A stretch of 32,000 nt of DNA from positions 2,340,001 through 2,372,000 of the forward strand of contig CP104013.1 in the NCBI GenBank assembly GCA_025839675.1, given 5' to 3'. How positions within the stretch are numbered: position 1 is the first letter of the stretch; every line of letters starts with the position of its first letter. The DNA is from Candidatus Lokiarchaeum ossiferum (GTDB lineage: Archaea > Asgardarchaeota > Lokiarchaeia > Sigyniarchaeales > Promethearchaeaceae). Below the pieces are notes generated by a model that was given only the letters and a program-made list of their open reading frames with translations, did not search any database and was not told the DNA's origin. A program made the position numbers and the translations under genes. Positions 7,006 to 29,306 of the stretch are shown here, piece after piece.

Positions 7006-7581
7006 ATGTTTGACGATGAAAAAGCCGAATGGGACAAATTCTTCGATTTCTTCAAAGAAAAATTCAATGAAGAAGTTGGATTGATGCCGGGAGTGTTTGA
7101 AAACGATGATTATGAGATTGATTTAATAGTCGGGGAAGAAACGGGAGATATCCTAGGAGTAAGAGTCATGCAATCGATAGCCTATGAAGATGATGAAGAA
7201 GACGAAGAAGGCGACGCAGAAATTGATGAAATTGCAACTGACGAAGAAGATGAAGAAGAAGATGAATCTGACATGGTGGAAATGATCCAATATGATTTCG
7301 TAAAAATGCCCATTGCAGAAACTGAAATTGAAGGAAAACCATATTTCCAACTCCAATTTGGAAGTCCAGAAGAAGAAAGCGAGGAAGAAGAAAAACAAGA
7401 TAAAGAAACTTCAACTGAAGACAAAGAAGAAAAGGAAGACAATGAATGGTTCAAATTAGTAATTTATTCAAAGAAGAACGAAAATGAAGAAGAAGAAATA
7501 ACGGGAGCGGTCATGGTTAATGAGAAAAATCCCGAAGAAATTACCGTCTTTGTTGAACATCCAGAATTGGAAGTTTTATAA
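7006..7581 (+). CDS. poly-acidic (D/E-rich) hypothetical protein, 191 aa
   Basis: ATG ORF. Long D/E runs (EDDEEDEEGDAEIDEIATDEEDEEEDESD; EEESEEEEKQDKETSTEDKEEKED) sit between short ordered-looking segments. The three antisense ORFs are codon-composition shadows. Confidence 0.55.
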   Translation: MFDDEKAEWDKFFDFFKEKFNEEVGLMPGVFENDDYEIDLIVGEETGDILGVRVMQSIAYEDDEEDEEGDAEIDEIATDEEDEEEDESDMVEMIQYDFVKMPIAETEIEGKPYFQLQFGSPEEESEEEEKQDKETSTEDKEEKEDNEWFKLVIYSKKNENEEEEITGAVMVNEKNPEEITVFVEHPELEVL

Positions 7582-7631: not shown

Positions 7632-8654
7632 TCATAAATGAAAAGAATCAAAAATGGCTTCATCCCGATCGCGCGGGAAGATTTTTACTTCTATTTCATC
7701 AGTAATTTTAAAGAGAGTCGTATTCATGGTCATGTGAACGACATTATGAGGCTCTAACTTACCCTTAATAAAAACGTGATCGTCCCATAAGAGTTTCAAC
7801 ATATCTGAATGAGTAGGTGATACTTGAGAAAGCAACTCACATCCTCGTTCATACCGGATGCGAGTGGTTGAAATTTCATCCGAAGGAATGGCAATAAATG
7901 AGAGTTTTTCAGAGATATAATGATTAGTTCGATAATAAACATCGTGAATTTCCGTGAGAGCATGATCGTTACCAGTTATTTCCAAATTAACTGCCCGATG
8001 TTCTTTCAGTGATATTATATTGTAACTAACACCACCTGATCTGGGAGAAAACTTAACCGCCCGATCGATAGCATCTTGGATAGATGTAGATTCTAACATC
8101 CATCTTCCTAAAATAGTCCGAGGAATCCCAATCGCTTTCACAGGATCAGGAACATAGTTACATGTGATTACAATTCCATGGGAGTTAAATCCGTGAGAAA
8201 ATCCAGGAACACATCCAGGATACGCATGAGTAAAAATCTGGCATCCATCTTGTAAATTTATAGTCACATAATAAGAATTATCCACTAAAATTTTGTGTAA
8301 GTCTTCATTGTGGCCAATTAAAATGCGATCTGGGGTTTTTATCACCAAGGTAGAACAATTTTCATCGTCATAAAGATGCATCAAATTCATTAAAAGAATG
8401 GAACGAAAATTTTGGGAAGCACCATCGGCGATCCCCTTGATTTCTTGCAGATATTGGGGGAAATGTTCTTCAATTAATCTTAACGCTTGATCAGCGATAG
8501 CAGGATTTTTTTGATCCTGAGACCAAAGGTGTTGAAATCGTGCACTTTGAAGTAAGGTTTGGGTAATGTTATTCAAAAAATGTTCTCCGATTGCAAATCC
8601 AATGTCATAATTCGATCCTTCTGCTATGAAATGAGGAAAATGGGTAAAAGTCAT
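7632..8654 (-). CDS. Ntn-hydrolase, peptidase C45 / acyl-CoA:6-aminopenicillanic-acid acyltransferase-like
   Basis: Candidate self-processing nucleophile in DDENCSTLVIKTPDRILIGHNED, with N-terminal GSNYDIGFAIGEHF. Length and layout are typical of the C45 family. Confidence 0.65.
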   Translation of the reverse strand: MTFTHFPHFIAEGSNYDIGFAIGEHFLNNITQTLLQSARFQHLWSQDQKNPAIADQALRLIEEHFPQYLQEIKGIADGASQNFRSILLMNLMHLYDDENCSTLVIKTPDRILIGHNEDLHKILVDNSYYVTINLQDGCQIFTHAYPGCVPGFSHGFNSHGIVITCNYVPDPVKAIGIPRTILGRWMLESTSIQDAIDRAVKFSPRSGGVSYNIISLKEHRAVNLEITGNDHALTEIHDVYYRTNHYISEKLSFIAIPSDEISTTRIRYERGCELLSQVSPTHSDMLKLLWDDHVFIKGKLEPHNVVHMTMNTTLFKITDEIEVKIFPRDRDEAIFDSFHL

Positions 8655-8814
8655 TATTTCTTGTTAAGCAATAATGATATTTCAAAGATCACTCACCATG
8701 GAGAAAAAATGAAAAATTTTCTAAAGAAAAATGCAAACATTAACCATAAAAAAACTCTCCATTTTAAATTATTAAGAAGCTAAAAACATATTTTTGGATA
8801 GTGATTTTCAGCAC

Positions 8815-10971
8815 ATGGCCAAATTCAAGAAAAAAACAATTAATTTAAATGGAAACATCTATGTCGCTGAGAAAATAATTGGAAAAGGCCAATTTGGAGT
8901 AATATACTTAGCCCGTTCTAAACAAAAAGAAATTCGAGGAAAAAAAATTGGTAAATATGTGGCGATCAAGGAATATTTTGTATCCCGTTTCTATGATCCA
9001 GCCTTAAAGGCCAACAAATGTGATCATTATTGGAAACGGGAAATAAATAATACAAAAATTCAGGGAAAATATGGCCCGACTTTGCTGAAATATTTAGATT
9101 CTGGTGTGATCCCATATGAAAATCGAGCAGAATACTATATAGTTCTATCCTACATTGAAGGGATGCCACTATCGAAATGGTTTTCTCAATTCCAAGCACA
9201 CCATCCACTATTTAGAAAAGAAGAAATATCTTACCTTACTTACTCAATTTTAATTCCTTTAGCAAAACATCTAGAATTTTGTCATAGGAGACAATTAATT
9301 CACCGAGATCTGTCCGTGGAAAATATCTTCATTGATACTTCACAAAAAGATCTTGTTCGACCTGTAATTATGGATTGGGGAGCATCGAAATTATTAAAAA
9401 ATGCAGCTAAAGATCCCCAATCAAAAAAATATACAGCCTTCATGAATAAAGGAACACCTCCTGAAATAGTAGTAGGGGCTAGACCAATAGCCGGGTCAGA
9501 TGTCTACATGTTTGGTCATCTAATGTACTTTTTATTAACAGGGGGTAAAACCGCTCGAACCCCAGCTACCAAAGAAGATTATGTGTTAAAACCTTATATT
9601 GATAATCCCCAAATTCCAAAAGAATATGATTTCTTAGTGCAAAAATGTACCCAATATGATCTAAAAGATCGCTTCCAAGATATCAGCATGGTAATTCATG
9701 CGTTGGAACAATTAGATAAAGATATTTCTGTTTCAAAAATAACTCATTTTGGAAAATCAAGTCCTAATCAAAAAATTCAATCCCCTCAACAGATGAAAAA
9801 AGTTACGGCTACATCTACATCCAGTAATCCATTTATTGCCTCATCCCCTATATTAAAACAAACAGATTCTCCAATTAAATCCTTAAAAGAAACTCTCCCC
9901 ATTCCAGCCGTCGAAGGTATTCGACCCAAGCCGATATCAACAAATAATGTAAAAATTCAACCAGATTTACAATATTTGAAAAATTTTGAATTGCAAATTA
10001 GTCAAAAAGGATTTCAATTTGCCCAAGCATTCATGACATATTTTAAAAATCCTAGTTGGATGTATTTACGCCAAGATACTTTTCAGATTTATCAAGAATT
10101 TCTCATGGAGATAAGTGCAGCTCTTTCGAATAAAGAAAATCTAATCCGATACGAAAAAATTGACAAAATTGCATATTTTGTTGGACAAATCACAGGGTCA
10201 CTACATGATCTGCAAGAAATTATTAAATATTTTGAATTGGTCTTTCAAAAGGCCCCATCCACAAAAGTAATATTCTTAGGGAACTACATTAATAATAATT
10301 CTCACGATATTGAATCATTTACCCTTCTTCTTAGTTTTTACTGTCTCTATCCTAACAATGTCATTCTTCTACGAGGAAAAAATGAAGTATTACATGCAAT
10401 GGAAACCAAGGGATTTGGAAAACATCTCAAATTGAAATTTGGGGCCTTTAGTTCACAAATAAAACACTTATTTCTACAGATTGTACAATCCTTAGATTTG
10501 CTTTGCATTACAGACTTCAACCCGAACATGAAATGTTTAGCAAGTTCAGGAGGTATTCCCTTTGATCCCAGTTTACCAGAGGAAATCTGCATTTTGAAGG
10601 CTCATTTAAAAGAATTGAATTTAATAACGCCATCTCGAAAAGAAATGTATGTTTATATGCAATCAATTTTGTGGGGAGAACCGAATGAATTTGAAGATAT
10701 AGTTCGTTCTACTGAGAAAGGAGTCTTTCAATTTAGTTGGAGTTATCTATCAAATTTTTTTAGGCAAAATCATATTCATTATATGTTCCGAAGTGCAACT
10801 GAACCATTAGGAAATCGGGTGATCTGGAATTTAGTGAATTCACTAAATTCTTGCGCATATTCGCGAAATAAACAAAAAAGGATCTCTAAAATCATCCGAG
10901 TGACGGAAAAGGGCCTTTCTACCCTAGTGATCAAAGATCTCCAAACGTACTATGCGCGAGATTACGCATGA
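8815..10971 (+). CDS. Hanks-type Ser/Thr protein kinase fused to a C-terminal PPP-family (calcineurin-like) phosphatase domain with degenerate catalytic motifs
   Basis: Kinase motifs: GKGQFGVIY, VAIKE, HRDLSVENIF, DWG, GTPPE. C-terminal domain: GQITGSLHDL, FLGNYINNN, LLRGKNE, SSGG, LWGEP, RSA, aligned to the PPP motifs GDxHG, GDxVDRG, GNHE, HGG, LWSDP, RxH. The track start at 8794 is TTG; ATG 8815 has GTGAT about 9 nt upstream. Confidence 0.85.
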   Translation: MAKFKKKTINLNGNIYVAEKIIGKGQFGVIYLARSKQKEIRGKKIGKYVAIKEYFVSRFYDPALKANKCDHYWKREINNTKIQGKYGPTLLKYLDSGVIPYENRAEYYIVLSYIEGMPLSKWFSQFQAHHPLFRKEEISYLTYSILIPLAKHLEFCHRRQLIHRDLSVENIFIDTSQKDLVRPVIMDWGASKLLKNAAKDPQSKKYTAFMNKGTPPEIVVGARPIAGSDVYMFGHLMYFLLTGGKTARTPATKEDYVLKPYIDNPQIPKEYDFLVQKCTQYDLKDRFQDISMVIHALEQLDKDISVSKITHFGKSSPNQKIQSPQQMKKVTATSTSSNPFIASSPILKQTDSPIKSLKETLPIPAVEGIRPKPISTNNVKIQPDLQYLKNFELQISQKGFQFAQAFMTYFKNPSWMYLRQDTFQIYQEFLMEISAALSNKENLIRYEKIDKIAYFVGQITGSLHDLQEIIKYFELVFQKAPSTKVIFLGNYINNNSHDIESFTLLLSFYCLYPNNVILLRGKNEVLHAMETKGFGKHLKLKFGAFSSQIKHLFLQIVQSLDLLCITDFNPNMKCLASSGGIPFDPSLPEEICILKAHLKELNLITPSRKEMYVYMQSILWGEPNEFEDIVRSTEKGVFQFSWSYLSNFFRQNHIHYMFRSATEPLGNRVIWNLVNSLNSCAYSRNKQKRISKIIRVTEKGLSTLVIKDLQTYYARDYA

Positions 10972-11199: not shown

Positions 11200-14100
11200 A
11201 TGTTAGTAAAAAAAAGAATGGTTAGGTTAAGTATCTTCTTTTTAATGGTTTCATCTTTTTATATTGGTACGGACTTATTGCTCGGGGGAAAAACAAGTTC
11301 AACTGCCCCTTTAAGTTCAAATGATGATAGCTTTGAAGAGAATGATAGTTATGATCAAGCGTATCCAATAGAAAAAGCCCAAGATTTAGAAGGAGAAGAT
11401 GGGTGGTATGAAGCAATTTTGCAAGATGAAGATTGGTATATATTTGATCTTGTGGAAGGGGAAAACGTAAGTATATTAATCCTTTTTTATGAAGAAGAAA
11501 TCCAAGATTATTCAGAAAATGTTGAAGCTGCATGCTATTCTGCCGATCATGTAACTCAAGTTGGAAACATAGACATTGGTCCAGGAATCATTCAGATAAG
11601 TATGGAAAGCGCTCCTTCAACAGGAGAATATTTTATTTACTTGAATCCAAATGAATTACAATCTGTTGAATATCAAATAATAATCTGGCCTTATATGGAA
11701 GATGAGTATGAGGAAAATGATGAAATATCTTCAGCAAGTGAAATTTATGAAAATTATCGAGGATATGAACTTTATCTTTATGCATTGGATGATGATTGGT
11801 ATAAAGTCTATCTTGAACCTGGATGGGAATTGTCGGGATATATGTGGTATTTATCATGTGCTGATATTAGCATTGAATTTTATGCTCCCGATGAAACGAC
11901 TCTATTAAATGCAGGAATTGAAAATGAAGAATATCTCTTCCAAGTGGAAGTTCAATTTGATATTCCGGTGGAATTAATTGATTCAGCAGGATTTTATTAC
12001 ATCCATATTGATTTACTTCAAGGTGTCTCCCTCTATGATCTTGAAATTGATATTGTAGGAAATCCATTACAAGCCCCACAACTCTACCCCATCACACCTA
12101 ATCCAAGTGATAGCGGATATGTGCAATTGCATTGGAGTTATGATAATGAAGCTAGTTTTTATACAATATATCGGGAGAGTTTTGAAATTGTCGATGTTAC
12201 TTCCTTGACACCTATTGCGGATTTTATTCAAAACAACTACTATAATGATTTGATAACGGAAAATGGGACGTACTTTTATGCAATAACATCGAATGCTGGA
12301 GGAGAATCAACCACCCCTTCCAATAGTGAAAGTGTAGATATTACAATCTTACCATTTACTGAGAGACGTCCCATTTTAAGGAATATATATAACGACGGTT
12401 ATGGGAGGGTAGAAATATATTGGGATGCAATATACGGTGCAGACTACTATTTAGTGTATCAAGATACCATTGAAATTATTGACTATTCTCATTTGACATC
12501 CATCGCTTTGGTTCAACCACATGATGAAGACCAAACAAATTTTTACTGGTCTGGTACAATTGAAGAAAATGGGACCTATTATTATGCCATTGTTGGAGTA
12601 CAAGGTGAAGATTTCAGCATTGTTTCTAATTCTGAGAGTGTTGACATAGCCATACCCCCATTTAGCGAGCGATCTACAAGATATTTCAATGTATATACAT
12701 CCTATACGGAGGATGGATTTGTAGAGATGGCATGGGGCAATGTTGAGGGTGCTCAAAGTTACTATCTTTATCGAGATACTACCACAAATTTTGATATTTC
12801 TGGATTAGTTCCTATTTCTATACTATCGGGAACTTGGTTTGATGAAGAACTAACCGAAAATGGAACATATTATTACTGCGTGGTACCATTCAATGGAGTG
12901 GACTTCGGAATACAATCCGCATGGGAGAGCGTCGAAGTCAATTTGGTTCCTTTCACAGAACGAATTCCGCAGTTGAATCCCATTTCCTGGCATGAATCCT
13001 ATTATGAAGAAGTCCATTTAAATTGGAACTCATTCCGAGATGCAAATCAATATCTCATCTATCGAGATACGAGTGAAATCACATCTATTGCAGGGATGGA
13101 ACCAGTGGGACTTTCAGAGTATTCGAGCTTTTCCGACTATGTGTCCACCAATGGAACATATTATTATACCATTTTAGCAACAAATGGATTTGAAACCAGC
13201 AAAATATCGAACTGTGAATCGGTAACCGTTAATATCACCCCATTTTCCGAACGGATTATTCCTTATATCTATGTTTATCCAAGAATTTCCGATACTGGGC
13301 AGATTGAAATAGAGTGGGAGTCTCTTCATGGAGCAACATCTTATGCGATTTATCGGGAGTCTAGCGAAATCGTTGACATTTCATCTTTAACTCCAGTTTA
13401 TACAACGTACGAGGAAACCAATTGGCGCGATCAAATTTCCGTGAACGGTACTTATTGGTACACTGTAATAGCAAACAATGGTACGGTTAATTGTACTCTT
13501 TCAGCAGCAAAAAGTGTGGAAGTGGCGATTATTCCCTTTTCAGAACGAGAAATGGCTTACATCCACGGATATACCGAACAAAATCGTGAATGGGTATATT
13601 TAAACTGGAATGAAGTCTATAGTGCAACTATTTATGAAATCTATCGAAGTAATTCTACAATTACTGATATTTCTGGGTTAAATATTTACGATACTACGAC
13701 CAGTACTGATTGGCAAGACAATATCCCATATAATGGTACTTTCTACTATGTTGTAAGAGCTTATAATGGGAGTATTTATACACCGATATCTGCATGTATA
13801 ATGATAGAGCAAATTTTCTTGCCCTTTTATGAATTAGAAACTTACTTCTACGACGTGCAAAGTTACGACGACGGAAGGGTTCATCTTCGTTGGAATGAGA
13901 TGGTAGACACAGACATCTATGAAATCTATCGAGATACATCAGAAATTACCGATATCTCGGAAATGTTACCTGTCCACATATCTTATGATCGTTGGGATAC
14001 ATCATATGATGATTATGTGGAAGAAAATGGTTTATATTACTATGCTGTGGTAGGTAATAATGGAACATCATATAGCAAGTTATCACCAATTAGATCAGTA

Positions 14101-17100
14101 TATGTAAACATTATTCCCTTCAATGAAAGAATGCCTTCTCTTCAGTGCGATTATGAAACCTCTACTGGTGAAGTTGAACTGGGATGGGATGTATTTAAGG
14201 AAGCAGATGTCTATTATATTTATCGGCTTGATTTCCAACCAGACGGAATAGATGGGTTATCACCCATCGCTATGACACCTAATAATTATTATGAAGAAAC
14301 CTTGACGGTTAATGATACATATTATTATGTAGTAGTTGGTTATGATGGGAATCAATTAAGCCATGTTTCAAATTGTCAGAGAGTTTCCTTACAGATTCTT
14401 CCTTTCTCGCAGAGAAAGCCATATTTGAACTCTATTTATTTTGAACCTTCAGATGGAAGGGTGGAAATGTATTGGAAGCAAATGTCGGGTGCAGTAGGTT
14501 ACTATATTTATCGGGAACAAAACCCTATTACTTCTATTGAAGGATTGGAACCCGTTGGATTTCAAATTGGTAACGGGCTGGATACGCACATATGGTATAG
14601 TGATTATCCAGAAGTAAGCAATCATTACTATTATGCTGTAGTAGCGTATGATGGTACCCAAATGAGTTTACCTTCCAATTCTCGGGAAGTATATATGTTT
14701 GAATATGAATTTGGTGATAGAAAACCTTATTTCTATTTTGAAAATGTCTGGAACAGCCAAGGGAAAGTATCCTTGGAAATTGAAGATGTAGATGGTGCAA
14801 TATCCTTCTTCATATTCAGAGACACTTCTTCGATAAGTAGTACTGATGGCTTGGAACCCATTGCAAGGATAGATGCAAACCCAAATAATTGGATAACATA
14901 TCTTGATATTGTTCCGAACAACGGTGAATATTACTATGCGATAATTGCAAACAATGGAACGACCAATTCATCCCTATCCAATTATCGAGATACTTTTATA
15001 GATGGGATTCAAGATGTTGAGACACCTGAAATCAATAATTATAATAAATATGATTCAGGAGAAGTATATATTGAATGGGATTATCAAACTTCTGCAGCAG
15101 AATACCTTATTTACCGAGAGATGAGTAATATTACAGACCTAGATGGATTGACCCCATTTGCAAGATGCCATAGTTCTTCATTTCATGATTATTCCATTGC
15201 CACAAATGATTCCTACTACTACGTTGTAGTGGCAAGAAATGGCATATATACAAGTGAAATGTCGAATTGTGTCAATATAACAGTCAATATGTATGTAGTT
15301 GAAGAAGCACCATTTTTATCGGCAGTATATAGATCCAGTGATTACCAGATATATTTAGATTGGGATTATGTTTCCAACGCTAATGTCTATTATATATATC
15401 GAGATTTAACTGAAATCACCGATATTTCTGGTAAGGTCCCCATATCTATTAGAACGGACTCAACTTATTACTATGATAACAAGATTTTCGAGGAAGGCAT
15501 CTATCATTACGTTGTAGTGGCAGGAAATGGGGCAGGTAATTCTTCTTGGTCAAATTGTTTAAATGCTACGATTGAATTTCTTCCCCCAACCACGCCAATT
15601 TTAGCGAGTATAAACCCTTCAATTGATCTTGATGGAGAAATTTACCTCGATTGGGACAATATACCATATGCAGACGGATACTATATCTATCGATGTGATA
15701 CGGAGGTTTATAATGCAGCGAACTTGATTTTAATTGGAAATACTGGAAGTAGCTCGTATTCTGATTGGGTTTCAGAGAATCAGATCTATCATTATGCCAT
15801 TGTTGCGAGTAACGAACTTGGAGTTAGTGAATTGTCTAACATAGAATCAGTCGAAAATCAACGTCCAGCGATCCCGAATCATGCATATGTTCCTTCAGGT
15901 TATGAATGGATTGATACGACAAGTAATGTTATAATGGATCAATACGAAAGCGAATCTTACTTAGAAATTGATCTACCCTTCAGTTTTGATTTCTACGGGA
16001 TTTCCTATTCGACTGTATATGTATGTAAAAATGGATATTTGACCTTTGCTGATTCCGCATACAAATATTGTGGAGGAATTTATAACGATTTTCCAAACTC
16101 TGTTGATAATTTGAAATATGTTATTTCACCATTCATGGAATATCTGTACCTAGGTACCATGAGTACCATAAGTGTAACCAATGGATCAGGATATTGTGCC
16201 ATTTCATGGGAGAATATGGAGTATAATGAAGGATACTCGACAAGCTTCCAAGTTATCTTGTATGACGACGGTTCAATCAAATTTCAATATGATTATGTCG
16301 AAGATGTTGATTCATATACTACGGTAGGGCTGAATTTGGGTGATGGTATCCACGGTGAGTTTTATCTTGGATTAACTACCCAAACCGATGATTTTGCCTT
16401 TATGTATGTCCCCTATTTAGAAAATACTAATCCATCGATGACCCTTCCCAATGATCTAAGTTATTATAGTAACGATGTAAAAACATATTCATTGAGTTGG
16501 ACCATCACGGATCCAGATGTTTATCAACCAATTTATCGAATAATGGTTGATGGGGAAATGATTGTAGATGATACCGTATGGACATCTGGGACTATGATTA
16601 ACTTCGATGTGACAGGATGGGAGGTAGGCCAACATTTAGTCATGATTTTCATTGAAGATGGGTTTGGAGGAATCGTTGTGGATTATGTTTGGATTTTCGT
16701 AGAAGAAATACCCATAATTTTGACTGCAGGAGATCTCTTCTACGAAGAAGGGGAAAGCCAACCTCAAATTCTAACATGGACGATTATCGACAATACCTAC
16801 AAAGCACCAACTTATAATATAACGATGGATGGAGTAGTGATGGTTGAAAATGAACCATGGCCGGGAAATAAATCCATTAGTTATGATGTGTCAGCACTTG
16901 CTGCAGGAAATTATGTCATTGAATTGATAGTGAGTGATGGGATGGGAAACACAGCTCGTGATGCTGTAATTGTTTCCGTTTACGCTCTATCAGATAACTC
17001 CCCCCACATAACATCTCCTGAAGATCTAACCTACTATGCAGGGTCGACCGAATCCTACATTCTCAGTTGGACGATTACAGATGCAACAGTAAACAATCCC

Positions 17101-17397
17101 ACATACTCCATTGAAGTCGATGGAACAATGGTTATTGAGAATGAATCTTGGGTAAGTGGGGATACAATTGAATTTGATGTGTCAAATTGGGAAGAAGGAA
17201 TCTACACCGTCAAAATCACCGTGAAGGATGGATACAATGGCGAAGCTATCGATGTAGTTGTAGTCACAGTTACCGGAACACCTGATGGAAGTCCATTTAA
17301 TTTGGAATCAATTCCAGGCTTCAACATAATATACCTATTAGGTATTTCAGCGATCGCAATTAATATACTCAAGAAACGGAAAAAGTATCACTTATAA
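11200..17397 (+). CDS. giant (2065 aa) acidic cell-surface repeat protein: signal/TM, 2 PPC-like domains, 13 FN3-like repeats, lectin-like domain, 3 Ig-like repeats, PGF-CTERM-like anchor
   Basis: Single uninterrupted ORF; AAGGTGAGG Shine-Dalgarno 8 nt before the ATG. N-terminal hydrophobic segment. Two PPC-like motifs (EENDSYDQA...DEDWYIF; EENDEISSA...DDDWYKVY). Repeats with Y-x-I-Y-R and NGTYYYA motifs. C-terminal IPGFNIIYLLGISAIAINILKKRKK. Confidence 0.9.
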   Translation: MLVKKRMVRLSIFFLMVSSFYIGTDLLLGGKTSSTAPLSSNDDSFEENDSYDQAYPIEKAQDLEGEDGWYEAILQDEDWYIFDLVEGENVSILILFYEEEIQDYSENVEAACYSADHVTQVGNIDIGPGIIQISMESAPSTGEYFIYLNPNELQSVEYQIIIWPYMEDEYEENDEISSASEIYENYRGYELYLYALDDDWYKVYLEPGWELSGYMWYLSCADISIEFYAPDETTLLNAGIENEEYLFQVEVQFDIPVELIDSAGFYYIHIDLLQGVSLYDLEIDIVGNPLQAPQLYPITPNPSDSGYVQLHWSYDNEASFYTIYRESFEIVDVTSLTPIADFIQNNYYNDLITENGTYFYAITSNAGGESTTPSNSESVDITILPFTERRPILRNIYNDGYGRVEIYWDAIYGADYYLVYQDTIEIIDYSHLTSIALVQPHDEDQTNFYWSGTIEENGTYYYAIVGVQGEDFSIVSNSESVDIAIPPFSERSTRYFNVYTSYTEDGFVEMAWGNVEGAQSYYLYRDTTTNFDISGLVPISILSGTWFDEELTENGTYYYCVVPFNGVDFGIQSAWESVEVNLVPFTERIPQLNPISWHESYYEEVHLNWNSFRDANQYLIYRDTSEITSIAGMEPVGLSEYSSFSDYVSTNGTYYYTILATNGFETSKISNCESVTVNITPFSERIIPYIYVYPRISDTGQIEIEWESLHGATSYAIYRESSEIVDISSLTPVYTTYEETNWRDQISVNGTYWYTVIANNGTVNCTLSAAKSVEVAIIPFSEREMAYIHGYTEQNREWVYLNWNEVYSATIYEIYRSNSTITDISGLNIYDTTTSTDWQDNIPYNGTFYYVVRAYNGSIYTPISACIMIEQIFLPFYELETYFYDVQSYDDGRVHLRWNEMVDTDIYEIYRDTSEITDISEMLPVHISYDRWDTSYDDYVEENGLYYYAVVGNNGTSYSKLSPIRSVYVNIIPFNERMPSLQCDYETSTGEVELGWDVFKEADVYYIYRLDFQPDGIDGLSPIAMTPNNYYEETLTVNDTYYYVVVGYDGNQLSHVSNCQRVSLQILPFSQRKPYLNSIYFEPSDGRVEMYWKQMSGAVGYYIYREQNPITSIEGLEPVGFQIGNGLDTHIWYSDYPEVSNHYYYAVVAYDGTQMSLPSNSREVYMFEYEFGDRKPYFYFENVWNSQGKVSLEIEDVDGAISFFIFRDTSSISSTDGLEPIARIDANPNNWITYLDIVPNNGEYYYAIIANNGTTNSSLSNYRDTFIDGIQDVETPEINNYNKYDSGEVYIEWDYQTSAAEYLIYREMSNITDLDGLTPFARCHSSSFHDYSIATNDSYYYVVVARNGIYTSEMSNCVNITVNMYVVEEAPFLSAVYRSSDYQIYLDWDYVSNANVYYIYRDLTEITDISGKVPISIRTDSTYYYDNKIFEEGIYHYVVVAGNGAGNSSWSNCLNATIEFLPPTTPILASINPSIDLDGEIYLDWDNIPYADGYYIYRCDTEVYNAANLILIGNTGSSSYSDWVSENQIYHYAIVASNELGVSELSNIESVENQRPAIPNHAYVPSGYEWIDTTSNVIMDQYESESYLEIDLPFSFDFYGISYSTVYVCKNGYLTFADSAYKYCGGIYNDFPNSVDNLKYVISPFMEYLYLGTMSTISVTNGSGYCAISWENMEYNEGYSTSFQVILYDDGSIKFQYDYVEDVDSYTTVGLNLGDGIHGEFYLGLTTQTDDFAFMYVPYLENTNPSMTLPNDLSYYSNDVKTYSLSWTITDPDVYQPIYRIMVDGEMIVDDTVWTSGTMINFDVTGWEVGQHLVMIFIEDGFGGIVVDYVWIFVEEIPIILTAGDLFYEEGESQPQILTWTIIDNTYKAPTYNITMDGVVMVENEPWPGNKSISYDVSALAAGNYVIELIVSDGMGNTARDAVIVSVYALSDNSPHITSPEDLTYYAGSTESYILSWTITDATVNNPTYSIEVDGTMVIENESWVSGDTIEFDVSNWEEGIYTVKITVKDGYNGEAIDVVVVTVTGTPDGSPFNLESIPGFNIIYLLGISAIAINILKKRKKYHL
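12070..15858 (+). repeat. 13 tandem, diverged in-frame ~97-aa (~291-nt) FN3-like repeats inside the giant CDS
   Basis: Each unit reads ...G.V.L.W....gA..Y.IYR.t.eItdisgL.Pi......y.D....NGTYYYavva.NG...s..Snsesv.i.i.PFsER. Unit boundaries were read from the translation; DNA copies are diverged, not identical. Confidence 0.85.
16429..17277 (+). repeat. 3 tandem ~95-aa Ig-like repeats (motif L(S/T)WTI.D....P.Y.I.(V/M)DG......E.W..G..I.(F/Y)DVS....G.Y.....(V/I).DG.G)
   Basis: Three collinear copies are visible in the translation (SLSWTITDPDVYQPIYRIMVDGEM...; ILTWTIIDNTYKAPTYNITMDGVV...; ILSWTITDATVNNPTYSIEVDGTM...). Confidence 0.75.
17314..17397 (+). other. PGF-CTERM-like C-terminal sorting/anchor signal (PGF + TM helix + KKRKK)
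   Basis: The tripartite tail PGF-NIIYLLGISAIAINIL-KKRKKYHL sits at the extreme C-terminus after a TGTPDGSP linker. Confidence 0.45.
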
Positions 17398-17452: not shown

Positions 17453-17615
17453 ATGCAAGATTTTGTTTTTCCCTTCACTTCACTTTTTGGTAATTCTAAG
17501 GGAGAATAGTACCCACATATTCTACTAATGATAAGCTTGTATTATTCCATTTCATATTGACAAATTGGTTCTTCTTCCTCAAGTGTAAGCTCTAGCAAAA
17601 GAGAGAGTGAAAATT

Positions 17616-18080
17616 ATGAGTGCATTCAAAACGTGTTTAATAGGAGAATCAGGTGTAGGAAAATCTACCCTTTCGAAAATGTTGCGGCAACAATCCGTAA
17701 CAGATCCACGAAAACCGACAATTGGAGTAAATATTGAAAAAATACCTACAAAGGAAGGCAATATGTGCCTATGGGATCTGGCGGGACAAAGACGTTTCCG
17801 TTTAATGTGGAATGAATTTATGCGAGGATCGGAATTGACCATCGTCGTGACTGATTCCTCCACCAAAAATGTGATGTTAACCAAAGATTTAATCGAACGC
17901 CATTTGAATAACTCCGCGGCCAAGATCATTGCAATTGCAAACAAGCAAGATCTCGAAAATCGGATGAATCCAGGTGAAATAGAAGCAGCCTTAGGTATAC
18001 CCACTTTTGGGATGGTTGGAATTCAGAGTGAAAACAGTGAAAAATTACAACAAATAATTGAACGTAATATTCGAAAATAA
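17616..18080 (+). CDS. Ras-superfamily small GTPase (Rab/Ras-like, 154 aa, no lipidation motif)
   Basis: G1 GESGVGKST, G2 PTIGV, G3 WDLAGQRRF, G4 NKQD. The track start at 17607 is GTG; ATG 17616 follows GAGAGAGTGA. The fully overlapping antisense ORF 17579-18004 is rejected. Confidence 0.85.
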   Translation: MSAFKTCLIGESGVGKSTLSKMLRQQSVTDPRKPTIGVNIEKIPTKEGNMCLWDLAGQRRFRLMWNEFMRGSELTIVVTDSSTKNVMLTKDLIERHLNNSAAKIIAIANKQDLENRMNPGEIEAALGIPTFGMVGIQSENSEKLQQIIERNIRK

Positions 18081-23793: not shown

Positions 23794-26289
23794 ATGAAAA
23801 AAAATCGAATAAAAAACAATGCTACACGAAAATTTGGACTAAAACAAAAACTAATTGTTTACATGCTCATTATGGGAATTGTTCCAGTTCTCGTTGCAAG
23901 TATTACAGGATATATCCAAACATCCAGGGGAGATAATGAAGTTTGGGAGGATAACCTTAAATCCATTGGAAAGACTAAAGCAGAAGAAATTACCACTTGG
24001 TTTGAAGCTCGGGAATCAGATTCCCGTTTTTTGGCAAAAACTCCCACTGTGCATACATATACAGGAGCATTAACTGATGGAGTTGTTGCAGCAGAAGATA
24101 GCACAGCTTTGACCGAAATTATGGAGGTTTTTGAATACGTTCTTGAGGAATATAAAGTTTATAACGAAATTTTCCTATTAGATTTAGACGGAGAAATACA
24201 AGCTCAAAAATCAAATGCAGGGTGGGAAGATGGACATTCCATTGGGGATGATCAAGCAGGAAAAGAATATTTAACAACTTGCATAACGAATAAGGATGTT
24301 GAAAATTATTGTTATCTTTCTGACTTTCGACTTTCAGGAAATGGAGAATATATCCAAATCACTACATCCGCCCCAATCCATGATCCGGATGGCAATTTCG
24401 TTGGCGTACTTGTTTTTTTTATTGACACACATTTTCTTACAGATTTAATGGCAGAAACTACCGGATTAAAGACAACAGGAGAAACCTACTTAGTAAATTA
24501 TGAAGGATATTGGGTCACGGCGAGCAAATTTGACAGTACGGTGGAAGGAGAAGGATGGTATTGCACATCCGATGGAGGAAGTTATTCCGATATTCATGAT
24601 ATTGTTCTGGTGGAACAAATTACCACAGTAGGATTTCAAGCCGCGATAGATGGGGAAACAGATATTTTCGAGAAATCAAACTTGGATTATCGGGGAATTC
24701 CTGTAATGGGTAGCTATACATATTTGGATCTTAACGGAGCGAATCAACCATGGGTCTTAGTGACCGAAATAGATGCTTCTGAAGCTTTAGAGGTTAGTAG
24801 GTCCATGTTGGTTATTACAATCATTGTGATATCTGTTTCAGTCGCACTTATCGGCGTGTTAGCATGGTTTATCGGAGGACGAACAGCCGAGCCAATCAAG
24901 CAATTAGCTGCCACCAGTCAGATTATAGCGAAGGGAAACTATGATGCAGAGGTTGATGTCAAAGCAAATGATGAAGTTAAGGAATTAGTTGAAAATTTTA
25001 CCGTAATGGTGGATAATATCAAGGCTTCTATGCAATATACAGAAAATATCTTAGAAGGACTCCCCGTAGGGGTCATGGCAGTGGATAATGATTTTAATGT
25101 GGAGAAAGTCAATGATGCTTTACTTAATATCACGGGATTTAAGCGTGACATTGTGGGCAAAAAATGCTATGATTACTTCAAAACTGAAGTCTGTAATACG
25201 AAAAATTGCCCTATTGCAATGGCCAAAAGCAAAAAAGGAACAACTGAAATGATTGATATTCCTTCGGGGAATAAAATTATGGAAGTGGGAGGTGCGCCGA
25301 TCTTTAGAGAGGGCAATGAAGTCATTGGAGGAATAGAAGTTATCACCGATGTAACAGCTATACGAGGTTTGGTAAAAAGTGTTCAACAAATTGCTGGGGA
25401 AGTATCCTCGATGTCCTCACAGATCGCAGAATCAAGTAATCAAATTAACTTATCGGTTCAAGAAGTAACTGGGGGAACTCAAGAAGTTGCCAAAGGAGCG
25501 CAGCATCAAACTCAATCGGTGAATCAAATTTCAAATGCAGTGTTGAAGGTTCAAGATGTAAGTAGTAAGATTGTGGAAAATTCCGCCGAACTGGCCCAAC
25601 AAGGCGCGGAAGGACAAAATATGGCTCAAAAAGGCAAAGATTTAACCGATGATTTAGTGATTCAGATCAATGAGATTACCACCGGAGCCGACAAAGTCGC
25701 TACAACTATGGGTTCTTTGGAAGTCAAGAGTAAAGAAATCAATAAAATTGTGGAAGTAATTGCAGGAATTGCCACAGAAACAAATCTTCTAGCATTAAAT
25801 GCAGCCATTGAAGCAGCACGAGCGGGTGATGCGGGCAAAGGGTTTGCGGTGGTGGCTGAACAAGTCCGCAAATTAGCCGAAGATTCGAAACAAGCGGCCG
25901 ATCAAATCAATGATTTAATCAAAGCCATTCAAATAGAAGTAAGTGATGCGGTGTCTGCCACGAATGATACGGTGAAATCCATTGAAAAAGGGGACACCGC
26001 GTTGAACGGTACGAAAGTCCAGCTTGATAAGCTCTTTCAAGTTATTAATCAGACCAACGTGGGTATCAAAAAGACGATCGATCAAGTTTCGGGACAAGAT
26101 CAAGATATCGCAGATATTGTAAATAATGTTGAAAAGATCAATGTAGTGATAGAACAAAGTTCGGGAACCGCTCAAGAATTATCTTCATCTACAGAAGAAA
26201 TGGCTTCAACTTTAGAAGAGATGAGTGCGGCAGCCGAAGAACTCAATGCCGCAGCAGATAAATTGTTTGATGAAATTAAACGAATATAA
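23794..26289 (+). CDS. methyl-accepting chemotaxis protein 1: TM - double-Cache-like sensor - TM - HAMP - Cys-containing PAS - MCP signalling domain
   Basis: GGGGAG Shine-Dalgarno. TM1 [21 protein letters not shown]. Cache-type end [15 protein letters not shown]...[16 protein letters not shown]2, then HAMP ([21 protein letters not shown]...[14 protein letters not shown]). PAS with [17 protein letters not shown]. Hairpin tip [26 protein letters not shown]. Confidence 0.92.
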
Positions 26290-26867: not shown

Positions 26868-29306
26868 ATGGGAAAAAAACTTAATATTAATTTTGGCTTC
26901 AAACAGAAGTTAATTCTTTATATGATCATATTGGGTGTTCTTCCAATCATTGTGGGAAGTATGATCAATTATACCCAATTTTCACAGGAAGTTGAAAGTA
27001 ATTGGGAAAATAATTTAGAAGCAATTGGACAGCAGAAAGCAAGTGTATTCAAGGATTGGACTATGGCTCGGAAAAGTGATGCAGAATTTTTAGCTTCAAC
27101 ATACGTGTTTGAAAAATTTGCACCCATATTAACTGGAGATGAGGCAGGTAACATTACTCTAGCAAAAGCAGAGTTGATGCATGCCATGAATAATATGATA
27201 GAAACTTCTGGATTCTATGAATCAATTTATATTTGTGATACAGATGGAATTGTTGATGCAATATCACTGGCAGAAGGAAATGTTGCTATCTCAGAAGAAG
27301 GTTCAGATGAATCAGCAGAAACTGAAGTATCGTATGTTATTGATAATGCAGCAGTTCCAGGATATGTATTTTTATCCGATTTCCATTCTCAAGATGGGGA
27401 CATTCAACTTGCCGTATCTGCACCGTTACATTGTGAAATGGGGGAATTTGTAGGAATTGTAGTATTTCAAGTGGATTTAACGAGTTTCTCTGACTTAATG
27501 GCCGATTCTCACGGATTGGGTCTTTCAGGAGAGACCTATCTGGTAAATCAACAATTAGAATGGGTATCCCAATCTAAATTTAGTACTGTTGCCTTATTGG
27601 AAGATAAAATTACTCAACCAGGCGCAACCCAAGCTTTAGCTGATAATACAGATGTTATTATTGAAAACGAAGATTATCGTGGAGTTCAAGTCTTCGGAGC
27701 CTATATATACATTGATGCCGTTGCCGATGCCGGATGCTCAATCGCAGGAACGGAGTGGATATTAGTTGCAGAAATTGATAGTACAGGAGAAGCATTAGTA
27801 CCTGTCAAGCAACAATTACTATATACAGTCATTATTATTGCTGTTTCAATTGTTGCCATCGCAGTGATCGCTTGGTTTGTGGGATCGAGTACTGCAAACC
27901 CAATTAAAAATTTAGCAGTAGTGAGCCAAAAAATCGCAAAGGGAGAATATAGTACGGAAATCGATATTAAAGCGAATGATGAAGTCGGTGAATTGGTGGA
28001 AAATTTCTCGGTCATGGTCCAAAATGTGATGTATCAAATGGAATACAATCGGAACATTATTGATTCAACCACCAATCCCTTGCTATTGATAAATGAAGAC
28101 CGAGTGGTCCAAGATGTGAATCAAGCCTATTGTGACTTAACGGGATTTTCGATAGAAGATGTAAAAGGAAAATCGGTTCGAAATATATATGCCCGGGAAG
28201 AGGATTTTATCGGAGTCGGAAACGAACTGAAAAATACGGGGAAAGTAAGTAAATATGAAATGCACCTGCAAAATAAGAAAGCCGAAGAACAAATCATGCT
28301 GTTAGATGATTCAGAGATGAAAGATAAAACGGGAACTTTCATGGGGTATTTGGTTACCTTAAATGATATCACCAATATCAAGATTTTAATACAAGCAGTC
28401 TCTCAAATAGCGGAAGAGGTCTCTTCGATGTCATCACAAATTGCCGAATCGAGTAGTCAAATCAACATGTCGGTGCAAGAAGTCACAGGAGGAACGCAAG
28501 AAGTCGCCCGAGGTGCTCAACATCAGACTCAAAGCGTAAACATAATTTCCGATGCAGTAATGCGCGTACAAGAAGTGAGTAAAAACATAGTGGCGAATTC
28601 CGATGAACTTGCTCAAGATGGTGCCGCGGGTCAAGATATGGCTCAGAAAGGAAAGGATTTGACCGATGACTTAGTCATCCGGATCAACGAAATTACCCAG
28701 GGTGCGAATAAAGTATCCATTGTAATGGGATCTTTAGAAGATAAAAGCAAGGCAATTAATAAAATTGTAGAAGTGATTTCTGGAATAGCTACGGAAACTA
28801 ACTTACTTGCCTTAAATGCAGCCATAGAAGCCGCACGAGCCGGTGATGCAGGAAAAGGGTTTGCAGTGGTTGCAGAACAAGTTCGCAAATTGGCCGAAGA
28901 TTCCAAACAAGCAGCGGATCAAATCAATGATCTGATTAAAGCCATTCAAGTGGAAGTCGTGGATGCTGTTAAAGCCACCGATACCACGGTTGTGGCAATC
29001 AATGAAGGACAAACGGCATTGGATGGCACAAAAGTCCAGCTAGATGCGCTATTCGGAGTAATCAACAAAACAAACGTCGGAATCAAGGAAACCATAGACA
29101 AAGTCACTACCCAAGATGGCCATATTGCCGATATCGTGGATAATGTCGAGAAAATTAACGTTGTGATTGAGCAAAGTTCTGGTACAGCCCAAGAACTGTC
29201 ATCTTCCACCGAAGAAATGGCTTCCACATTAGAAGAAATGAGCGCTGCTGCGGAAGAACTCAATGCCGCAGCCACGAAACTCTTTGATGAAATTAAACGA
29301 TTATAA
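26868..29306 (+). CDS. methyl-accepting chemotaxis protein 2 (same architecture; PAS lacks the Cys motif)
   Basis: Collinear with MCP-1: [45 protein letters not shown]...[16 protein letters not shown] ([26 protein letters not shown]), and a near-identical signalling domain. Confidence 0.92.

Follow-up and report, generated by a model that had tools for sequence, protein, structure and literature searches.

Within a window of 32,000 nucleotides from the genome of Candidatus Lokiarchaeum ossiferum B-35 (contig CP104013.1; positions below are those of the window), the gene at 8815-10971 encodes UYP45666.1, a protein in three parts: a protein kinase domain, an unconserved S/P-rich linker and a C-terminal domain which, from its sequence and its predicted structure, keeps the fold of the PPP phosphatases and has lost every one of their catalytic and metal-binding residues. 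It belongs to a clade of apparently dead PPP domains found in apparently Lokiarchaeia-like Asgard archaea, one sub-clade of which is covalently fused to an intact-looking kinase. This archaeal family of PPP-type pseudophosphatases, with its kinase-fused sub-clade, appears to be new, although PPP-type pseudophosphatases themselves are already known. The gene and its parts are:

8815 to 10971, plus strand: complete kinase/pseudo-PPP fusion gene, stop codon included (open reading frame list; exact protein match in NCBI, UniRef and Logan; N-termini of orthologues).
8860 to 9678, plus strand: protein kinase domain, amino acids 16-288 (Pfam Pkinase E = 5.5e-19, 69 bits against a cut-off of 31.7).
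9751 to 9999, plus strand: low-complexity S/P/K/Q/T-rich linker, amino acids 313-395 (unalignable between orthologues, in which its length is 83-187 amino acids).
10000 to 10968, plus strand: PPP-fold domain predicted to be catalytically dead, amino acids 396-718 (phmmer, profile, AlphaFold2, Foldseek, and the ratio of non-synonymous to synonymous substitution rates, dN/dS).

The single long open reading frame runs from a TTG at 8794 to 10971 on the plus strand, and the ATG at 8815 gives a product of 718 amino acids. We take 8815-10971 as the gene because the product from this ATG is identical, by exact-sequence look-up, to the database protein P0003 (UYP45666.1 of strain B-35) and has an N-terminus resembling those of its orthologues (MAKFKKKT, MGGFKKTT and MAKFKKKT). 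NCBI names the protein “Serine/threonine-protein kinase PknD”, which disregards its C-terminal domain, and the automatic UniRef name for A0ABY6HQF8, “protein-serine/threonine phosphatase”, is almost certainly wrong as the sequence cannot support that enzymatic function.

An initial annotation, made from the letters of the DNA without database searches, had placed a PPP-type domain after an S/P/T/Q-rich linker, and phmmer, profile, AlphaFold2 and Foldseek results agree in finding one there. Searching the PDB with phmmer aligned amino acids 400-661 to PP5 at 1.3e-9, with PP2A, PP1 and calcineurin the next matches, and a profile of five orthologous domains reached 6e-14 with PPP phosphatases as its sole matches. 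An exhaustive HMMER search of 1.8 billion representatives gave 1e-27 to intact archaeal PPPs; it was needed for finding relatives, a word-indexed protein search having given few. An AlphaFold2 model of amino acids 391-718, built on a 91-sequence alignment that included canonical PPPs, had a predicted local distance difference test score (pLDDT) of 95.9 and a predicted template modelling score (pTM) of 0.94, and Foldseek placed it with PP1, PP5, PP2A and RdgC at E values of about 1e-19 and template modelling (TM) scores of 0.72-0.83 (0.75-0.83 for PP1, PP5 and PP2A), one of the top matches being PP1C within the SHOC2-KRAS-PP1C complex. Of the two Pfam models that had been proposed as a check, Pkinase (PF00069) did match, but Metallophos (PF00149) gave no match to the window protein even at E<=10, nor to the fusion-family proteins P0004-P0006 at E<=0.01, and this is a false negative for PPP homology; the active relative P0008 matches the same model at 2.5e-19. 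Pfam and NCBIfam searches of the full-length protein returned kinase models and no other domain. The C-terminal domain is, on these alignments and this model, a true homologue of the PP1/PP2A/PP5/calcineurin-type phosphatases with the fold kept.

The residues that carry PPP chemistry are replaced at the following sites (PP1 numbering for the lost residues), which were located by HMMER alignments and column comparison, except that EKG was placed by PP5, calcineurin and orthologue alignments.

10183 to 10197, plus strand: GQITG in place of GDxHG, amino acids 457-461; metal ligands D64 and H66 lost.
10279 to 10299, plus strand: GNYINNN in place of GDxVDRG, amino acids 489-495; D92, D95 and R96 lost.
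10372 to 10386, plus strand: RGKNE in place of RGNHE, amino acids 520-524; N124 and the general-acid H125 lost.
10546 to 10554, plus strand: SGG in place of HGG, amino acids 578-580; H173 lost.
10717 to 10725, plus strand: EKG, amino acids 635-637, at the RG of the second phosphate-clamp arginine, R221.
10789 to 10797, plus strand: RSA in place of RxH, amino acids 659-661; H248 lost.

In the HMMER alignments GDTHG is paired with GQITG, GDFVDRG with GNYINNN, RGNHE with RGKNE, HGG with SGG and RSH with RSA, and arithmetic from 8815 puts these motifs exactly where the initial annotation had them. Columns were then compared between the fused clade on one side and 14 active archaeal PPPs and about 60 other PPPs on the other, scoring those with conservation of at least 90% among the active archaeal PPPs and 85% or more among the other PPPs. 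Replaced in the fused clade, and replaced variably, were D64, H66, D92, D95, R96, N124, H125, H173, D208, H248 and Y272, while the columns kept were glycine, hydrophobic or scaffold positions (G457, G461, F487, G489, R520, G521, E524, G580, W620, P623 and F648). All six metal ligands, both phosphate-clamp arginines, and the general-acid histidine with its partner aspartate are lost in total.

The replacements differ from one orthologue to the next, reading Q/R/R/R/P at D64, T/I/I/V/C at H66, N/L/L/A/S at R96, K/P/R/P/S at N124, S/S/S/A/G at H173, K/D/Q/D/Q at R221 and A/D/S/D/D at H248. By motif, orthologues have GRTIG, GRTVG or GPICG at the GDxHG site, GNYFNLN, GNFFGLN, GNYFNAN or GHYFHSI at the GDxVDRG site, and GPTE, GRAE, GPME or GSTE at the GNHE site (GKNE in the window protein), and one pocket position differs even between two L. 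ossiferum strains (T460M). The substitutions are no singleton of this genome, as the orthologues and the second strain all carry degenerate motifs, and no alternative alignment restores the metal ligands. As read from these columns the domain cannot be a metallophosphatase or bind phosphate as its ancestor did: metal binding and canonical phosphate binding are both predicted to be lost because the chemistry-bearing columns and both clamp arginines are replaced, and variably so. No part of the old pocket is under selection. The proposal of a kept fold with lost catalysis is therefore upheld by the model (pLDDT 95.9), by its TM scores to PP1-type structures and by the replacement of every catalytic and metal-binding residue.

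The domain as a whole is another matter. In a second L. ossiferum genome (CP163304.1, locus L009) there is a collinear orthologue of 718 amino acids, 90.5% identical, and Nei-Gojobori estimates were made per region between the two genes. The degenerate PPP domain had a dN/dS of 0.079 at a dS of 0.75, the kinase 0.107 at a dS of 0.19, and the linker 0.293. Identity between the deep orthologues (P0003, P0004 and P0005) is 42-43% for the degenerate domain and 48-51% for the kinase; the linker cannot be aligned. Purifying selection acts strongly on the degenerate domain, which is conserved to about the same degree as the kinase and is not decaying. In addition, 23 columns are invariant in the fused clade and rare (<15%) in other PPPs, including an N-terminal QFAxAFxxYFxxPxW helix with Q401, A403, A405, Y409, P413 and W415, and further D421, H537, D561, L563, R608, W642, I670/W671 and K686, and these point to new constraints.

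The kinase half was predicted to keep GKGQFG, VAIKE, HRDLSVEN and DWG, and all four are present in a domain whose Pfam match is given above and whose PDB matches are Stk1/PknB-type kinases, StkP and Aurora. Its motifs line up with the corresponding motifs of bacterial and human kinases, and were compared across three full-length orthologues:

8881 to 8898, plus strand: glycine-rich loop GKGQFG, amino acids 23-28 (G23, G25 and G28 invariant).
8959 to 8973, plus strand: VAIKE with the beta3 lysine K52 (K52 invariant).
9040 to 9042, plus strand: alphaC glutamate E76 (invariant).
9301 to 9324, plus strand: catalytic loop HRDLSVEN, amino acids 163-170 (H163, R164, D165, L166, S167 and N170 invariant).
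9373 to 9381, plus strand: DWG, equivalent of the Mg-binding DFG, amino acids 187-189 (invariant; aligns to the DFG of EGFR and of an S. aureus kinase).
9433 to 9465, plus strand: end of the activation segment, TAFMNKGTPPE, amino acids 207-217, with PPE the APE equivalent (T207-E217 invariant except K212, which is R in one orthologue).

Invariant across the three are thus the G23xG25xxG28 pattern, K52, E76, D165, N170, D187, the TPPE (E217), D229 and R286. The domain is a predicted eukaryotic-type (Hanks) kinase, with the residues for phosphotransfer present and invariant, and it is fair to call it active-looking; we infer its activity and claim no more, because the catalytic loop is without the canonical lysine. 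NCBIfam matches to PknB, MADS6, BREX PglW and lanthionine synthetases were set aside as partial kinase-domain matches far under the cut-off, and there was no defence context. The kinase and the degenerate PPP domain are joined by a variable disordered linker of 83-187 amino acids, a region that in single-sequence AlphaFold2 was low-confidence coil only.

Surveying for the same architecture elsewhere, as the initial annotation had recommended, found the fusion in at least four further metagenomic lineages, two of them with the same chromosomal position. The layout of kinase, linker and degenerate PPP domain is seen in P0004 (744 amino acids) and P0005 (828 amino acids), both with a Pfam Pkinase domain, and in collinear pieces on a frameshift-ridden contig (L004). 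Fragments of the fusion family are P0001, P0006, P0010, P0018, P0030 and P0036, with P0165 and P0166 from the kinase side. Locus L002, which carries P0005, has an eight-gene synteny block in common with the window, its neighbour genes being 42-64% identical to the window's and its fusion protein 41%, and because of this shared block the fusion fits vertical inheritance in Lokiarchaeia-like lineages (only L. ossiferum is a named organism, the metagenomic relatives being assigned as Lokiarchaeia-like by shared synteny). Two scans of GTDB species genomes and one of JGI metagenome contigs returned no relatives but also missed the source species, so they are not evidence of absence from Asgard genomes, and this suggests that the source genome is absent from, or masked in, the GTDB scans.

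On a neighbour-joining tree of 286 columns all 15 degenerate archaeal PPPs formed one clade, a monophyly which long-branch attraction could inflate, sister to active archaeal PPPs with a GDYVDRN variant and holding a fused and an unfused sub-clade. The aspartate at D92 has become asparagine (GNY) in 14 of these 15 aligned proteins, P0006 having histidine. An active kinase-PPP fusion that might have been the ancestor was not found, as none of the ten long PPP matches had a kinase domain, these having EF-hand, PPP5-TPR or no extra domains, and a kinase profile at E<=1e-15, used in a word-indexed search of limited sensitivity, found no kinase beyond the fusion family. Further degenerate PPP homologues lie beyond the archaeal clade (P0002, P0043, P0068, P0101 and P0146, with GNYSGHR, GNYLGNN, GSYINRH, GNYINKG and GNFINNG among their motifs), often with D92 changed to N or S. 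The pattern suggests repeated and independent losses of PPP catalysis that began with the same step, a change at D92.

The unfused members of the archaeal clade (P0007, P0009, P0011, P0013, P0023, P0029, P0031-33 and P0044) share with the fused ones the D92 to N change and degenerate motifs, but they have no kinase and instead carry long N-terminal extensions that are zinc-ribbon-like (CxxC pairs in P0007) and acidic with low complexity. They have a syntenic locus of their own, consisting of a HAD hydrolase, a small open reading frame, GatC and the pseudo-PPP (L006 6001-7734, L007 6001-7518 and L008 6001-7536), and no kinase lies next to the pseudo-PPP in these three loci. One unfused protein comes from the same metagenome as a fused orthologue. 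These proteins represent a second pseudo-PPP architecture, likewise undescribed.

Eukaryotic signalling has pseudophosphatases among its established regulators, and to our knowledge the PPP family was long believed to be without them. The first to be reported was PfPPP8 of Plasmodium (Morano et al., 2023; PMC10317984), so that the suggestion that kinase-fused PPP pseudophosphatases were undescribed holds for the fusion and for the archaeal occurrence, neither of which was found in the searchable literature, but does not extend to PPP-type pseudophosphatases as such. The literature on pseudophosphatases of the PPP family also yielded a 2007 survey of kinetoplastid phosphatases (PMC2175518). PfPPP8 is non-catalytic but essential or conserved (PMC10317984), and like the archaeal domain it has its metal-binding aspartates replaced, with the same D to N change at both Asp positions (GNLINRG in PfPPP8, GNYINNN in the fusion). 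Unlike the fusion it is eukaryotic and has no kinase attached, and its other motifs are reported to retain their positively charged residues whereas in the fusion every motif is degenerate, both arginines included. The two are likely to be of independent origin because the archaeal degenerate clade groups with active archaeal PPPs (PfPPP8 was outside the tree).

Kerk et al. (2021; PMC8249667) argue for an Asgard-related ancestor of the eukaryotic PPPs, and that analysis of Asgard PPPs makes no mention of degenerate members or of kinase fusions. Active Asgard/archaeal PPPs are the closest sequence relatives of the degenerate domain (E 1e-27, about 30% identity; P0008 and P0012) and share its fold, N-terminal helices included, those with the GDYVDRN variant being the sister clade; they differ in keeping GDTHG, GDYVDRN, GNHE, HGG and RAH, and none examined has a kinase domain. 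Literature searches on archaeal pseudophosphatases, Asgard kinases and phosphatases, L. ossiferum kinases, and the locus tags and accessions turned up no account of the protein or of its architecture, although their coverage was partial and this is not proof; searches on Asgard small GTPases with kinases and Roco proteins returned nothing relevant. If confirmed, the fusion would mean that pseudoenzyme regulation, and the physical coupling of a kinase to a phosphatase fold, were already present among the prokaryotes most closely related to eukaryotes. Few Asgard archaea are in culture, L. ossiferum being one of them, and the domains are small and separable, which makes the idea directly testable.

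We propose that the degenerate PPP domain is a non-catalytic protein-binding module tethered to the kinase of a two-domain Lokiarchaeia signalling protein, which would either use surfaces remote from the former active site for docking substrates or partners or else act in cis as a regulator of the kinase; the clade-specific invariant residues would be candidates for the new functional surface. TAB1 is a PP2C-fold pseudophosphatase that acts on TAK1 and p38, and pseudo-domains act likewise in JAKs and in receptor protein tyrosine phosphatases (PTPs). In these (TAB1-TAK1/p38, JAK JH2-JH1 and the receptor PTP D2 domains) a dead signalling fold regulates or docks an active enzyme, as is proposed for the fusion, but the folds are PPM, PTP or kinase and not PPP, all are eukaryotic, TAB1 acts in trans, and no homology is implied. 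By this analogy the degenerate domain is probably a docking or regulatory module for its tethered kinase. Three points weigh against this. The AlphaFold2 model, owing to the canonical PPPs in its input alignment, corroborates the homology without being independent of the sequence; the catalytic loop of the kinase reads HRDLSVEN, HRDLSIDN or HRDLSTEN across orthologues, with serine at the lysine position of HRDxKxxN; and a full-length AlphaFold2 run without an alignment reached a pLDDT of 35 and so speaks neither for nor against contact between kinase and pseudo-PPP in cis.

The initial annotation had offered “phospho-site reader or regulator”, and of these the regulator is favoured. As a reader or substrate trap, after the classic “grab and hold on” model of pseudophosphatases, the dead site would bind phospho-Ser/Thr and hold the products of the kinase or shield them from active phosphatases. 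This is a common mode of PTP-type pseudophosphatases, it has been proposed for PfPPP8, where basic residues are retained (PMC10317984), and two positions in the pocket of the window protein do carry lysine, K522 within GKNE and K636 in the place of R221. Both clamp arginines, R96 and R221, are lost, however, and we consider a reader unlikely because a selected phosphate pocket should be conserved and yet the pocket columns R96, N124 and R221 vary among orthologues, and T460M even between L. ossiferum strains.

A partner for the fusion could instead be sought in a small GTPase encoded nearby:

17616 to 18080, plus strand: Arf/Roc-family small GTPase UYP45668.1 (Pfam Arf 1.4e-20).

In the distant loci L002 (10491-10955) and L003 (2769-3227) the GTPase gene lies directly 3' of the fusion on the same strand, with gaps of 131 and 165 bp, and in the window and L009 it is the next conserved gene beyond a lineage-specific gene for a protein of 2065-2278 amino acids. 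The window GTPase is 72% identical to that of L003 and 53% to that of L002, and so is better conserved than the fusion (41%). The degenerate PPP domain or the kinase might then bind the GTPase, whose state would control the kinase or which would itself be the substrate; possible analogies are the SHOC2 complex, where PP1C contacts RAS-family GTPases, and the ROCO proteins, where Roc is coupled to a kinase, and the Foldseek matches include PP1C from the SHOC2-KRAS-PP1C complex. That match, though, reflects the PP1 fold alone, and the adjacency may be mere synteny as conservation extends over the whole downstream block (Endo_dU, RNase III-like, Rpo11-like, methyltransferase and enolase). Moreover, L004 carries the fusion with no GTPase nearby, and in L. 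ossiferum a 6-kb gene and T-rich, terminator-like sequence follow the fusion gene. It is doubtful, then, that the degenerate PPP is an effector-like GTPase-binding module and that fusion and GTPase make up an Asgard GTPase-to-kinase signalling cassette; were it true, contacts between PPP folds and the RAS family, as in SHOC2-MRAS-PP1C, and the ROCO-like linking of a kinase to a G domain would both have a precedent among prokaryotes, here with a pseudoenzyme as adaptor.

Should the kinase be inactive too, the whole protein would be a scaffold of two pseudoenzymes. Its HRDLSVEN loop lacks the lysine of HRDxKxxN and DWG is an uncommon variant of DFG; the arginine of Tyr-kinase-type loops (HRDLAARN) is likewise absent from the HRDLS(V/I/T)(E/D)N loop of the orthologues, over which there are weak Bud32 and Kdo matches in Pfam/NCBIfam. 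HxDLSxxN-type loops of RIO/Bud32-type kinases are compatible with phosphate hydrolysis or transfer, and the HRDLSxxN loop of the fusion kinase presumably resembles these. With K52, E76, D165, N170, D187, the glycine loop and PPE all invariant, and a kinase dN/dS of 0.107, a protein with two dead domains has only an outside chance of being correct, and the preferred reading of a degenerate PPP domain serving an active-looking kinase is retained.

That the C-terminal domain still dephosphorylates proteins, making a bifunctional kinase/phosphatase as its UniRef name and PPP fold might imply, is very improbable, since the metal ligands, the general-acid histidine and both arginines are replaced by chemically unsuited, non-conserved residues and there is no Pfam Metallophos match. 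Least credible of all is a decaying relic, or an assembly or sequencing artefact, for although the loss of catalytic residues is complete and their replacements are variable, the dN/dS is 0.079 at a dS of 0.75, 23 columns are invariant in a clade-specific way, the domain keeps 42-43% identity between lineages in which the neighbouring housekeeping genes are 42-64% identical, and two closed L. ossiferum genomes as well as independent metagenomes have the open reading frame intact. Both residual catalysis and decay without function are effectively excluded.

Ahead of the fusion gene there is a candidate control element, and T-rich, terminator-like runs read from the sequence lie 3' of its stop codon:

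8763 to 8775, plus strand: AT-rich, TATA-like element TTTAAATTATTAA, about 40 bp 5' of the ATG, a possible archaeal promoter (read from the sequence).

The neighbouring genes fit an Asgard archaeon (the Arf/Roc small GTPase, Endo_dU, an archaeal RNase III-like protein, an Rpo11-like subunit, enolase and methyl-accepting chemotaxis protein (MCP) chemoreceptors), and nothing in the window matched a tRNA or an Rfam family. On the upstream side of the fusion gene are a gingipain-like peptidase C25 (3355-5166, plus strand, E = 9e-41), an extremely acidic D/E-rich protein of 191 amino acids with no Pfam match (7006-7581, plus strand; found at the same position in the second L. ossiferum genome) and a protein of the acyl-CoA:6-aminopenicillanic acid (6-APA) acyltransferase family (AAT; 7632-8654, minus strand). 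This upstream neighbourhood is not kept in L002, which has a GH38 mannosidase there instead.

Between the fusion gene and the GTPase gene, 11200-17397 on the plus strand encodes the protein of 2065 amino acids (2278 in the second L. ossiferum genome), which has about 20 divergent repeats of about 90 amino acids (NGTYYY...SN..SV) with weak PKD-like matches, a signal-like N-terminal segment and a C-terminal transmembrane anchor; no tandem repeats were detected in its gene at the DNA level. Its gene is not at that position in L002 and L003, and it has the look of a surface protein that evolves fast and whose gene was inserted into a conserved block. A shadow open reading frame on the minus strand (17579-18004) overlaps the GTPase gene, and further downstream are two tandem paralogous chemoreceptors (23794-26289 and 26868-29306, plus strand) with dCache, HAMP, PAS and MCP signalling domains.

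Divergence between the two L. ossiferum genomes is mosaic. Comparing window 8815-10971 with L009 10001-12157, nucleotide identity is 93-97% in the kinase half and 83-88% in the linker and degenerate PPP half, and in the flanking DNA it shifts from about 92% to about 84.5% near 12.9 kb of the window, which suggests recombination breakpoints or locally different histories.

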